From NCBI GenBank assembly GCA_964016885.1, contig OZ024753.1, positions 29,078,001 through 29,142,000 on the forward strand: a stretch of DNA of 64,000 bases, read 5' to 3'. Positions within the stretch are counted from its first letter, which is position 1; the number at the start of each line of letters is the position of its first letter. Below the pieces are notes generated by a model. It ran no database searches. It was not told the DNA's origin and worked only from the letters and a program-made list of their open reading frames with translations. The stretch comes from Eledone cirrhosa. Taxonomy: Eukaryota. This document shows, in pieces, positions 9,663 through 56,430 of the stretch. Position numbers and translations under genes: made by a program.

Positions 9663-9930
9663 ACTTAACTCGTTCTATTGACCGAGTGCTCTTACCTTTG
9701 GATATTTCTACCAAACCTTTACTACAATATATATAAGCGATTCTTTGCTTAAACTTTAATCTGTTAGTTTAATATATATATGCCCCCCCCCCCCACACAC
9801 ACACACACTCTCTCTCAAGAGCGTGAAACTAATAAACCTTTGTTCGTACTGCCTCTGTTTTGTTCCGGTTCCATTTTTCACTATATATATATATATATAT
9901 ATATATATATATATATATATATATATATAT

Positions 9931-10007
9931 AGGAACCAGTAAGACCCCGACGGCTGAGCTCAAGCTAATATGGTCCACCTGGTTCCTTACCACATTTCCT
10001 TCGTTAT
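9931..10007. mobile_element. Internally deleted member of the hairpin family at 27120 and 46678, between (TA)n tracts
   Basis: Shares gaccccgacggctgagctc and tggtccacctgg..cttaccaca with 46678-46859. Confidence 0.7.
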
Positions 10008-10039
10008 ATATATATATATATATATTGGACACTGACCAA

Positions 10040-10412
10040 GAAACTCACCCAGATGGTGGATGGGTGCTACACGAGAATGCTGAGGATGGCTTTGAACATT
10101 AATCAGTATACACTGAGGATGAAGAACTCAGAGCTGTACGGGAGCCTCCCAAAAGTCAGATCAAATGTGACACAGAGGAAACTGAGATTAGCTGGACATG
10201 CTCACCGACATCCAGAGTTGAAACTGCACTCAGTGATCCTGTTGGAGCCCCTGCATGGACACACTGGAAGAGGAAGACCAAGGTTAACGTATGTTGATGC
10301 CCTAAGGACAGACACTGGTCTGTTGGAGACGCAGGACATGGCAGCAATAATGAGGGACAGAGACTGGTGGAGAGAACTCGTCCATGGATCTCGGGAATTT
10401 TACCCGCCTTAG
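10040..10412 (+). mobile_element. RTE-like LINE 3' fragment (C-terminus of ORF2)
   Basis: DGCYTRMLRMALNI..ELYG..RKLRLAGH..GRGRPRLTYVD..DRDWWR is the typical RTE C-terminal pattern. Flanked by (TA)n. Confidence 0.85.
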
Positions 10413-10784
10413 ATATATATATATATATATATATATATATGCTTACACACACTAACCCATCATACATTTATGCATATATTTGTAAGCATGAATCCACAAC
10501 TCCTGTTGGAGTCGTGGAACTAGTCATGGCTTACGGCATGTCTGGGTATTTTCAATCCACAGGGGTACCTATCAAATGTATGGTAAAGCTCCAAACATAC
10601 AGAGAGGATTCAGTTTTATACCCTGTACCAGTGTAGCAAAACTGAGCCCTCTATAGATAACGGTATTTTAAATTCCGAAATATTAGGACGATAACAAACA
10701 ATAATAAATACCCAGAAACACACTAAGATCTTCGTTGCCTTCATTTAAACTAAATTTTACAGTCCTTTCCCATTGTCTATTTGG

Positions 10785-10978
10785 AAGCATTTTAAGCCTG
10801 GCGGAGCCCATCCCTTTCCAGGCCTGAGTACAGCAGATTTCTTCCAGAGAGACTGGTACTTTTTTATCGACCTCGAAAGGATGAAAGGCAAATTTGACCT
10901 TTGGGATTTGAACTCAGATAGCCAGAACGAATACCATAAAGCATTCTATACGACGTTCTAACCACTGCAAATTCACCT
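10785..10978 (-). mobile_element. tRNA-derived SINE with Meta-like core, alternative-tail variant (related copies ~22835-22968, 24065-24525, 35380-35608)
   Basis: Core tttatcgacctcgaaaggatgaaaggc joined to ggcctgagtacagcagatttcttccaga. Confidence 0.7.
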
Positions 10979-53223: not shown

Positions 53224-53297
53224 CAGATTAAAGTTTAAGCAAAGAATCGCTGCTTTCACCCTTAACGGGATCTTCTGAAACTAACAAAGTCAATCTG
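53224..53297 (-). ncRNA. Type I hammerhead fold in the 3' pLTR, variant core CAGAAGA
   Basis: cagatt..agttt-CAGAAGA-t ccc gttaa ggg t-GAAA-gca gcgattctt tgc-TT-aaact tt aatctg. Confidence 0.75.
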
Positions 53298-53373
53298 TAA
53301 ACGCAGAACTGGATATTTTAAAAAACGTTGCAACCGGAGGAAGACAGGAAGACGATACTTTGGTTTGTGGTAA

Positions 53374-53634
53374 CGTTCGCTGGCAAAGAACGGGAAAAAA
53401 CGAATAATACGTCATTAATAGGAGCGGTGAAAAACAATTACGCGCAAAGACAGAACCACGTTTATGGTATAAAAGAGGTCGTAGACTAATGTTCTCTTAG
53501 GTGGTGCATAGAGACGTTCTCTGGCAATGAACGAAAAAACGAAGATAATAAGTCATATGTGGAGCGTGGAGAACAATAGCACGCAAAGACAAAACCACGT
53601 AAATGGTATAGCAGAAGTTGTAGACTAAAATTCT
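53374..53634. repeat. Diverged ~120-bp direct duplication in the 3' UTR of the Penelope-like element
   Basis: 53374-53494 versus 53515-53634 (cgttc.ctggcaa..acgcaaagaca.aaccacgt..atggtata..gtagactaa..ttct). Confidence 0.8.
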
Positions 53635-54208
53635 AACTAGGAGACCAAATGAATCTCCGCTACAGAGTTAAGAACAAAGTAAATAAATACAGTACAGAAG
53701 TAATAGAAACAAATAAATACATACACGCAAACAGATACGTACATACACAAGCATACGCAAAACCTTACCATAGGTATACAAAACCACGCACATATAAATA
53801 TGTGTGTGTGTATGCTTGTGTACAAATAAATAAATAATTATATAAACGTATATAAGTAAATAAATACGTATATAACAAGCTCACACACATACCTACAAAT
53901 AAATACACGAGTGTTCGGAGACGTAAGTCAACTAAAACAAGAAGTACACATATACACACACCCACCATACGTACGAACCTGCATACTCACGCAGACGCAA
54001 AACTCCCGTATACACATAGCCAAACCCTAAATACCAGAATATGTAAAAATTATACGCCATAACAATCAAATATACGTACGAGAAGGTATACATGCCTTCA
54101 CAAAACATACGGGTAATATATACTTACCTATGCAAATAAGTAAAGGAATAAACAAAACATATACTTAGCTCCCACATCAAGACGTAAAATATCCACGTAT
54201 AGATCGTG

Positions 54209-56285
54209 CTATCCGTTAGGGTATAACGTGGGGCTGTAATACAGGAAAGTTTTGTGCAATTTATGTTTACAAGCCGAAATTGCCTCAGATTTTTTGTTTA
54301 AGATGTGGTCTGTGGCGTAGAGTATTTCCAGGGCCTCAGCGGCGCAGATGTCACATGGTCTTTTATTTCCGTTATACGATCTAGCCCTAGCTAGGATCTC
54401 CCAGTGTAACTTATATTGGGTGTGGTTGTCTTTTAGACTCCAGATATAAGCTGAAAGTGACGTCATATACCTTCTTAGAGGGTAACGAAAAGAATGGGTA
54501 TGCATGTAAAGACGCTGCTTGAAACTATTGGCGGTTAACCCTATGTAGGCCCTACGGGACGGATAGGGGGCAATCAGCCCGATTCCTACAATTACAGTTA
54601 GTACTAACTACAGGGTTGCACATGTTCCTCCGGCTAGGTAGTTTAGCTAAATTTGAAGCTGTGATGTTATGTGCAAGGTTAGGAGTCGTAGAGTAAGAAA
54701 TTTGAATAGTATTTCTATAAAAAAATTTACTATATTTATGTGTAGGGGGGAAAATGCTTCGTAATAAGGGAAAGAAAGATCTTAGCTAATGGTGTGGCCA
54801 CCTCCATATTATATGGTGGGTTAAACCAACAAATGCGACGGGATCTATTTCTTCTAGGTCTATTTTTGTACTCTGTATATGCTACCTTATCGACAAATCC
54901 ACTTCGAGCAAGAGCTTCATTGTAATAAGTGGAATGGTCGTTGAAAATGCGCTCGTTGGTGGAAAGACGGGAAAGCCTCAACGAAACGTTTTTTACCAGG
55001 TTCTTGGTTATGCTGGCAGGGTGGTTGGAATGCTTACTTATGTAATTAAGCGTATCATTCGGCTTTCTATACGGGTAATACAACCCATTCAATAAATTGA
55101 GGGTAACGTCGAGGTAATTAACGACCGAGAGATTGGCCTCAACCTGTATAGAGAGGTTGAAGCCTTTAAAGAAGGCTGTGAGTTCTTTTCTGAACCTGTC
55201 GCAAGCACGAGGTCCGCACTTAGTCATGGTCAAAAGACCATCGTCACGGTACAAACCACCGCCCGCGTTGGGGAATTCGTCCTTGATAGAGAAAAGAAGG
55301 AAAAGGCCAATAAGATCAGTAACCTCCGCAGAGTCACTGGCGCCCATACTCACGTCGAATGGGGTACTATTGGATTTTTTAATCCAAATAGAGTCGTCGA
55401 AATTAATCACCGACTTTCGGGCATTAAGGATGACATCAACTTCGAAATCCTTAACCACTGTGAGTGTTTTAGCGAAATTGATAGCTCTAAGGAGAAGTGG
55501 TAAAGTGATGGAGGAGTAGTAATTGTTGATGTCGAATTGGATAAAACGGCAATGTTCCTTGTTACATATGCCGTTGAACCAATCAATCACCGCGAAAGAA
55601 TTGTTCCACAGTGCGAGAGGGGCCAAACTTCTAATTTCAGGTATAATTCTATCAAGAATCGTTTTACTAAGTCTACCTAAATCGGACTTCGTAGGGTTGA
55701 TAAGCCGAATAGAGGGGTTGTTCGGAAAATTGGATTTGTGATCCTTCAGGGTAAAGTGGGGAGAGATAGGGTCCAGAGGTTCGGTCCGGTCCAGGATGTT
55801 GAGATCAGATGTGATTTTAAACCCAGCATCGTTGATTTCATTGATGACACACCGATTAGTTTTACGGTAATCCTTAGTTACAGCATTATGTAGTAGTTGA
55901 TGGTAAGTACTGCGCTCCACTTGATATAGGTTGCCAATTTTGTCGGAATGGACGTGCACGGCGTTAGAATCCTTAATAGAACGAATTCTATTCATCAGGT
56001 CTTGCTGGAAGGAATTGTTCCTCTCCGAAATTTGATACTCCGAATGAGTTCCAAGACATCATTTTCGAAGGGTAGCAAAGCTGGGTTCCACGGAGGGTTA
56101 TTATAGGTTTTAAATCCAAATTTACCCTGTTTGTTGTCTGCTTTTCGCGGATTATCGAAATAAAAGGCACGCCAACGCAACCTTTTAATGAACGCGTCTG
56201 TTTTCTGTATCAGGAGTTTTAGGTATGTTTTCCTGCTTGGTACTGGTATGTTCTTTGTAGAAATATTCAGATGTTGTTTCTGCAT
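54209..56285 (-). pseudogene. Disrupted Penelope-like RT/GIY-YIG endonuclease ORF
   Basis: STKNIPVPS..LRWRAFYF start; RT motifs FIQFDINNYY, FDVSMGASDSAEV, GLYRDDGL, NYLDV; WFNPPY; CNCRNRADCPL; AYIGLT..FKQR; CDIC..E..LNKKSE..CKH. Frameshifts near 56020 and 54748, and an apparent deletion near 54560. Confidence 0.92.
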
Positions 56286-56430
56286 GATGAATATAAGTCA
56301 GTAGAGTGCTCAACCGAAGGAGCCAAATAGTAACAATAATACAATTGAAGGCTAAAATCCAAAGAGGGCTCGATAAGGAAAATATATATCAAATATATAA
56401 GAACCGTAGAGCAAATATTTATTAAAATAA

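Follow-up and report, generated by a model that had tools for sequence, protein, structure and literature searches.

How the reverse transcriptase (RT) of Penelope-like elements (PLEs) chooses its template, and how their two alternative 3' ends (the 'tail') come about, has been an open question. Addressed here is a 64-kb stretch of the Eledone cirrhosa genome (GCA_964016885.1, contig OZ024753.1, positions 29,078,001 to 29,142,000 of the forward strand; hereafter the window), which is rich in (TA)n and carries a Hydra-type PLE at 53212..56521 on the minus strand. An original prediction, made from the letters of the window, had listed seven copies of a box, GAGYRCTYT, downstream of hammerhead ribozymes and had taken it for a conserved cis-element, with an RT recognition site among the options offered. 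A conserved and strand-specific cis-element between the hammerhead and the AUG is indeed present, and it is larger than the box. In Hydra-clade PLEs of many marine animals, bulged hairpins stand in pairs at this place, and the box makes up their 3' strand. This structured cis-element is real and clade-wide, and it has a strong positional link to the ends of insertions. Each hairpin is probably a docking site for the element's protein, a function predicted here from sequence comparison, and would set the start of reverse transcription just upstream of it.

A twin hairpin upstream of the start codon

The motif was tested via related loci and read mapping. Of the related loci, 76 come from metagenomes (out of 392 confirmed stretches, the best 80 were taken), and 15 are Hydra-type loci (L077-L091) from assemblies labelled as prokaryotes (bacteria or symbionts), which most likely represent contamination by the animal host. 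An AUG call was possible for 49 of these 91 loci, and boxes were counted up to 200 nt upstream of it (8.7 kb in total). In these flanks, GAGCACT occurs 68 times in sense and never in antisense orientation, compared to 0.46 times in shuffled sequence, and it is found once in 81 kb of open reading frame (ORF); the strand and positional enrichment that the original prediction called for is thus present. Two boxes are found in 34 loci, one in 9 and none in 6. A GCTC arm lies 6-45 nt upstream of 59 of the 68 boxes, compared to an expectation of 13%. Where two hairpins precede the AUG (33 loci), the consensus consists of an AU-rich patch, GCUC, Y, a variable stem-loop, R, UH, GAGC and ACUNU, with a variable insert of 8-26 nt between the arms. 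The two hairpins are spaced by 54-83 nt (89 nt in the window).

Positions inside the hairpin were not used in its definition, so pairing there is an independent test. For 63 non-redundant hairpins, an excess of pairing over shuffled controls is observed only with a 2-nt bulge; Watson-Crick pairs then occur at pair 5 in 60 out of 63 hairpins (34 when shuffled), at pair 6 in 39 out of 59 (15) and at pair 7 in 29 out of 41 (11), although the shuffle ignores relatedness. The first base of the bulge is U in 61 of the 63. Pair 5 partly tracks the type of hairpin (U-A in hairpin 1, C-G in hairpin 2), while pairs 6 and 7 display all four pair types. The 33 twin loci represent 25-31 families with unrelated spacers. 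Compensatory variants also occur in the basal stem, namely TCTC/GAGA (both hairpins of L027), GCAC/GTGC (L080 and L082) and ACTC/GAGT (in the window). The box, which had been described as near-palindromic, is not a linear element but one strand of a covarying bulged hairpin. A covariance model built from a poorly gapped alignment with two pairs was weak, as only hairpin 2 fell below an E-value of 0.01, and is not used as evidence.

By eye, the published consensi show two hairpins before the AUG in Hydra-1_Ajap, one past the hammerhead in Hydra-2_Ajap and Hydra-2_Amil, and a GCCC/GGGC variant in Hydra-1_Crog; Hydra-1_Obim and Hydra-1_Amil are less clear. The string GAGCACTCT occurs five times in the supplement of Craig et al. 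2021 (PMC8557442), namely three times in Hydra untranslated regions, once in a Naiad file in a coding-like context and once in a Chlamys file, a count from which line breaks may hide matches. The translated box can also be read in 10 out of 15 N-terminal extensions proposed by gene callers (VEH and RAL in five by script, MSTL in five by eye; P0010, P0016, P0033, P0036, P0039, P0042, P0053, P0084, P0091 and P0103), as indirect support for the motif in further hosts. Taken modulo 3, the distances from box to AUG in the twin loci are distributed as 16/14/3, a weak signal since the families are not independent; frame 0 would bring a UUG that overlaps the box in frame.

Most junctions lie just before a hairpin

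Comparison of copies within and between loci yielded 32 junction rows, 16 of which were kept after removal of contig ends (n = 8), reciprocal rows (n = 6), a duplicate flank (n = 1) and a divergence between two families (n = 1). TA runs were masked; an earlier unmasked count was discarded because TA runs in one reference gave false matches. In twelve of the 16 usable junctions, the end falls within the AU-rich patch, 2-6 nt ahead of a hairpin's G, with five at hairpin 1 (site 1) and seven at hairpin 2 (site 2). As microhomology with TA lengthens the match, the true ends may lie a few bases further upstream; TA dinucleotides upstream of the hairpins peak at -7 and -6. Of the other four junctions, two lie within the hammerhead and two fall exactly on the box beside an inversion. 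The latter (L011:992 and L089:1998) are at, or at most one base from, the start of the GAG box, as if copying or strand switching had stalled at the base of the hairpin. A count that needs no reference agrees: the distance from hammerhead to (TA)n is 39-58 nt where a canonical hairpin is missing (seven loci) and 111-126 nt where one is present (five loci), with two outliers among the 14.

The box at 56303..56311 does end 17 nt ahead of the ATG at 56285, as had been claimed. Yet, a fixed distance to the AUG does not hold: it varies from 12 to 58 nt across the 33 twin loci (standard deviation of 12 nt), whereas the distance from the hairpin to the insertion end has a standard deviation of 1 nt.

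The end rule was first drawn from other hosts and then held for the window's own family, in which all five copies fit. Three end 2-7 nt before hairpin 1: the 3' pseudo-long terminal repeat (pseudo-LTR) of the element itself (53212..53314, minus strand), of which the (TA)n end lies 2 nt short of the expected start of hairpin 1; an inverted partner copy (16684..16768, minus strand), which ends 5 nt before it; and a short fragment (9736..9775, plus strand), which ends 2-7 nt before it. The other two are truncated plus-strand copies that contain hairpin 1 and end in (TA)n 3 nt (16766..16933; hairpin 1 at 16847-16897) or end 2 nt (21084..21239; hairpin 1 at 21152-21202) before hairpin 2.

Four sequencing runs were mapped on 56230-56525 (raw reads of two runs and contigs of two runs). 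Among the loose ends listed, the largest raw-read class departs onto (TA)n at 56415, 2 nt before hairpin 1, with 2335 of 13129 and 2516 of 13412 mapped reads in the two runs. Contig ends occur at 56327, 3 nt before hairpin 2, in two runs (n = 23 and n = 1). In run X20, depth drops from about 7650 over the pseudo-LTR to 4250 at hairpin 1 and 260 at hairpin 2, the last being about 30-fold under the pseudo-LTR. In three related loci (L001, L014 and L085), full-length copies begin just past a TA run, at or just before a hairpin; this would be the outcome if they were unit-length copies of a circular RNA, or if TA had expanded in the AU-rich patch.

Boxes, hairpins and hammerheads in the window

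All seven listed boxes are present at their positions and on their strands. The pattern GAGYRCTYT is enriched in the window, with nine exact matches compared to 1.45 expected and at least nine in none of 100 shuffles, but the listed GAATGCTCT at 39654 falls outside it. Three exact matches had not been listed (16229, 26720 and 61608). A hairpin descriptor has 10 matches in the window compared to a mean of 1.9 (maximum of 5) in 40 shuffles; as it was written with the window sites in view, this count is not a blind test. Under this descriptor, the listed sites at 9684, 39654, 43514, 46723 and 56303 pass, while those at 42362 and 45808 fail. It adds 56363, 16889 and 21194 (the variant GAGCCCTCT) to the original list, as well as probable chance matches at 26720 and 59758. 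The original caution about chance hits is thus justified for 16229 and 61608, which fail the descriptor, and probably for 26720, which passes with the lowest score and lies within another repeat family; it does not extend to the motif as a whole.

In the element, hairpin 1 (56363..56412, minus strand) reads GCUC-U...A-UC-GAGC-CCUCU and hairpin 2 (56303..56323, minus strand) reads GCUC-C(UUCG)G-UU-GAGC-ACUCU. Of the listed sites, those that pass in truncated islands are copies of hairpin 1 from other families, followed by 34-57 nt and then (TA)n. The hairpin at 9668..9692 (plus strand) has ACUC/GAGU arms and a 1-nt bulge, with (TA)n 34 nt past the box. Below the hammerhead at 39750, the hairpin at 39654..39678 (minus strand) has a 1-nt U bulge and one mismatch, with (TA)n 35 nt past the box. 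Two more on the minus strand have ACUC/GAGU arms and a UU bulge, at 43514..43543 ((TA)n 57 nt past the box) and 46723..46751 (43 nt); the latter island shares its end with a second copy near 9925-10005. A TA-flanked island at 42362..42390 (minus strand) carries a probable degenerate hairpin with a damaged 5' arm, and the box at 45808..45816 (plus strand) has no recognisable 5' arm.

Hammerheads in the window were identified by eye and with a regular expression for the core. The claim that the boxes lie 3' of a hammerhead is correct for the complete hammerheads at 39750 and 56439-56489, the latter with a U4A core, and partly so for a degenerate one at 43656 and for the boxes at 9684 and 46723, which are preceded by only the 3' half as the 5' half was lost in an inversion. 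It fails for 45808: the hammerhead upstream of this box appears to be part of another insertion, whose end is a TA run ahead of the box. Nor are the hammerhead families unrelated, as had been stated; they are diverged members of one clade. Inverted head-to-head 5'-truncated copies form palindromes at 9535-9635, 16684-16933, 43552-43852 and 46765-46862, which delete or duplicate half a hammerhead and represent the usual inversion structure of PLEs. In an Rfam scan of the window, no family reached its gathering score; among the 150 of 290 matches listed by E-value, none is a hammerhead, and those listed are TA-repeat noise.

A Hydra-type element with two pseudo-LTRs

The element at 53212..56521 (minus strand) is more than one unit long, has frameshifts, stops and a deletion, and is flanked by (TA)n. 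Its 5' pseudo-LTR (56415..56521) is identical to the 3' copy over 103 nt as a direct repeat, and the unit measures about 3.2 kb. The element would represent a start at site 1 that copied one unit plus about 105 nt off a tandem or circular template. Within the 5' pseudo-LTR, a type I hammerhead fold (56439..56489) can be read from the sequence, with AGUUU/AAACU as stem I, CAGAAGA with U4A as core and AGCA/UGCU as stem III; neither minimum free energy folding nor Rfam recovers this fold. Unlike this U4A core, canonical cores are present in the related loci. The same CAGAAGA core (U4 to A) is found in the four window copies that cover the family's hammerhead (e.g., 53232-53282 and 16684-16800), one of which carries further changes; all three stems are readable in the family's hammerhead.

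The ORF starts at 56285 with an N-terminal domain (55998..56285) that contains RLRWR, a Hydra RWK-type motif, followed by the RT and thumb frame (54736..56058, YRDDG). This frame has 1793 homologues among 7999 scored candidates, and the best 120 of these 1793 show 39-56% identity. [quoted passage not shown] The region 54212-54607 matches the C-terminal EN section of full-length homologues, and the EN is partly deleted in the window copy. Elements of the Hydra clade have an RWK motif, DKT replacing DKG, a GIY-YIG domain C-terminal to the RT and a canonical hammerhead in the pseudo-LTR (PMC8557442). The window copy carries RWR and DKI, its nearest homologue (P0001) RWR and DKT, and the homologue consensus RWK and DKT; the insertion target is (TA)n, as in the Hydra clade. 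Domain order, the CxCX5C, CxxC and CxH motifs and TA targeting together point to a Hydra-type PLE. The element had been labelled a Naiad, which is wrong: Naiads have their EN N-terminal to the RT and no canonical hammerheads, and here the ORF opens with the N-terminal part of the RT, with the EN behind it. A Pfam scan of eight window frames gave no family, a search of PDB sequences with the protein profile gave a single match (E = 0.3), and no relative was present in the viral contigs searched.

The span 56590-57290 (minus strand), directly upstream of the element, is a partial tandem (about 480 nt) without coding content. It has a hammerhead of its own (57220 and 56724) and a variant hairpin around 57050-57075 (GUUC/GAAC, a UA bulge and another flank); the second copy in this retrozyme-like tandem stops in (TA)n about 7 nt ahead of the variant hairpin. 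Elsewhere in the window, the fragments at 9969-10412, 41278-41821 and 45016-45354 resemble RTs of RTE-type LINEs, although Pfam gave no match for them.

Template choice and alternative explanations

The anatomy of Hydra elements (two hairpins, two ends and a tail) fits the internal starts of Poseidon elements, and it is on this fit that docking and priming are proposed. We infer that the Hydra protein binds the hairpin RNA and initiates there: it would contact the base of the stem, the bulge and the ACUNU flank, while the endonuclease would nick (TA)n and the nicked end would prime on the AU-rich patch just 5' of the hairpin. A start at hairpin 1 would give a copy without either hairpin, and a start at hairpin 2 a copy with hairpin 1 and about 35-55 nt, i.e., the PLE 'tail'. 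Two hairpins would thus account for the two 3' ends and the known tail. Likewise, the box would lie 20-57 nt from the end of truncated islands because starts at hairpin 2 carry hairpin 1 and a short spacer, and hairpin 2 would stand only in front of the ORF because copies started at either hairpin exclude it. More speculatively, the bulge may be read as an arginine-sandwich motif by conserved arginines, either those of the RxRW motif or those of the RxR before WFNPP; R26, R28, R486 and R488 are near-invariant in the proteins.

Several observations weigh against docking and priming at the hairpins. No box is found in 6 of the 49 loci, although some of these have bad AUG calls or short contigs, and the box at 45808 has no 5' arm. 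Four out of 16 junctions lie elsewhere (five out of 17 if the family-divergence row is counted), and the binomial p of 3e-14 for the remainder is inflated, as the 2-6 nt window was picked after the data had been seen. Some octopus-like families end, by eye, about 7-13 nt before the hairpin. The raw-read loose ends listed include 56345 and 56380 instead of 56327 (site 2). Those at 56345 probably reflect several private changes of the window copy; at 56380, around 1250 reads per run depart onto one uniform non-TA sequence, which may represent a subfamily, a single amplified locus or an artefact of the library. The hairpins are weak and are not set apart by folding energy, with only one of nine hairpin-region folds beating its own shuffles. 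Finally, the wobble counts (4 G-U vs. 1 A-C, and 12 vs. 7 in another count) do not fix the strand on which the hairpins act.

The ambiguity of strand leaves room for an explanation at the level of DNA, in which the GIY-YIG endonuclease recognises the hairpins in single-stranded cDNA or a cruciform, cuts next to them and resolves an intermediate. It predicts the same clustering of ends and suits the two inversion junctions right at the box (L011 and L089); moreover, the tail of the D. virilis element is reported to be needed for recognition of plasmid DNA by the endonuclease (PMC11167929). Against it, the genomic ends of the single PLE tested in vitro match RT starts on RNA (PMC11167929). In the window, G-U pairs are slightly more numerous than A-C, and hairpin 2 contains C(UUCG)G, an RNA-type tetraloop. 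This tetraloop is known for its stability in RNA, and on balance we regard action in DNA as unlikely.

Alternatively, the hairpins could serve cap-independent translation of the uncapped RNA left by hammerhead cleavage, for instance by pairing of the box with expansion segment 6 (ES6) of 18S rRNA. Hairpin 2 invariably lies 12-58 nt before the AUG, one frame is avoided in these distances (16/14/3), and the ACUNU flank is conserved despite being unpaired and having no partner in cis. ES6 of yeast 18S rRNA contains AGAGTGTTC (PMC9176245), which is complementary to the box over 9 nt with one wobble, and ribozyme cleavage can drive cap-independent translation (PMC13725137). Nonetheless, the letters of the box track its 5' arm (GAGA, GTGC and GAGT variants) instead of an invariant rRNA, 14 of 66 boxes have an A or G at position 8 that disrupts the rRNA pairing, and the stem buries GAGC. 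Compared with the distance to the insertion end, that to the AUG is twelve times more variable, and hairpin 1 and the ends would be left unexplained. As the sole function, translation is quite improbable; it could still be an additional role of hairpin 2.

That the box is a promoter or initiator element in double-stranded DNA of the pseudo-LTR is very improbable. PLE promoters are located in the pseudo-LTR (PMC11167929), the motif is strand-specific and upstream of the ORF, and the copies in L001, L014 and L085 start at a hairpin directly past a TA run. However, covarying arms, a fixed bulge and a variable insert of 8-26 nt make no sense for the site of a linear factor, and the 3' insertion ends follow the arm rather than the box. 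A splice branch point, a TCT initiator, an NKX site, a miRNA seed and an H/ACA box were considered and dropped, as the covarying arm is unaccounted for in each. Chance matches, or plain shared ancestry of neighbouring repeats without function, can be dismissed for the motif as a whole: the 9-mer is short and two or three of its nine exact window matches are chance (16229, 61608 and probably 26720), but the sense, antisense and shuffle counts and the covariation over 25-31 families with unrelated spacers refute this.

Docking and priming at the hairpins would bear on how the RT of PLEs chooses its template: one in vitro study located internal starts and not the signal, and the covarying motif predicts both ends within a few bases. 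The motif can also serve as a marker that assigns short hammerhead islands to the Hydra clade. We tentatively entertain the further possibility that the hairpin is a portable, TAR-like arginine-sandwich RNA tag of about 25 nt, duplicated so that each RT subunit, or each start, has one, and kept across molluscs, cnidarians, echinoderms and crustaceans. Such a tag would make a telomerase-related RT start a few bases upstream wherever it is placed. If true, this would account for the PLE tail, reveal which non-autonomous hammerhead repeats are mobilised by Hydra elements and offer a minimal model for the definition of the template edge by a telomerase-like RT; a movable start signal would be relevant to telomerase evolution and to RT-based DNA writing.

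Comparison with known systems

The element family, the tail and internal initiation are already known. The twin hairpin and its link to insertion ends were not found in the literature searched, which included the accessible parts of PMC4209133 and PMC3846280 and was mostly without subscription papers, Repbase and Dfam; Figures S1-S2 of PMC11167929, on a start-site stem-loop, may bear on the novelty of the twin hairpin. The closest system is the Hydra clade itself (PMC8557442), with which the window element shares the C-terminal GIY-YIG, the CxCX5C, CxxC and CxH motifs, a hammerhead fold in the pseudo-LTR (with a U4A core in the window copy) and (TA)n targets; an Octopus member is listed there, and the published consensi contain the hairpins. 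In contrast, the hammerhead alone is annotated in the part of that source available, without a twin hairpin or a link to the ends, and the window unit of about 3.2 kb slightly exceeds the published 'generally <3 kb'.

For the arginine sandwich of HIV TAR and 7SK, PMC6189040 describes a Watson-Crick pair, a pyrimidine-led bulge, and a G-C and an A-U pair able to form a U.A-U triple. The Hydra hairpin appears to share this layout, given its Watson-Crick pair 5 (60/63) and U-led bulge (61/63). Its four stem pairs presumably have the same letters as those of TAR. Differences are that the loop of the Hydra hairpin closes on the opposite side and that the A-U pair is changed in a few families (L080, L082 and Hydra-1_Crog).

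In the Poseidon element PAc of Anolis, the RT starts inside the RNA at two sites, the genomic tail is the interval between them, RNA 3' of the start is required and the protein is a predicted dimer (PMC11167929). The Hydra elements resemble PAc in that their 3' ends fall at two fixed sites with the tail between them. They differ in that PAc starts inside its ORF (+111-118) at an AC-rich stem-loop, described for one element and without a defined conserved binding motif (PMC11167929), while the Hydra sites lie in the 5' untranslated region before two copies of a clade-wide motif. In the PAc template as printed there, inspection by eye did not show the Hydra motif. It did show another bulged hairpin, with a different sequence, that starts a few bases past the reported start of the RT at +111-118; this suggests that the geometry is shared by the Poseidon clade.

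More distant parallels exist in other groups, where the Hydra hairpins may have analogues. In LINE and R2 elements, which have 3' stem-loop signals, and in telomerase, which has a template-boundary stem, an RNA stem bound by the RT sets where the template starts or stops. By analogy, the Hydra hairpins too would fix the start of the template via an RT-bound stem. The LINE and R2 signals lie within the copied region near the RNA's 3' end, whereas the Hydra signal is duplicated, sits 3' of the start and is left out of the copy made from its own start.

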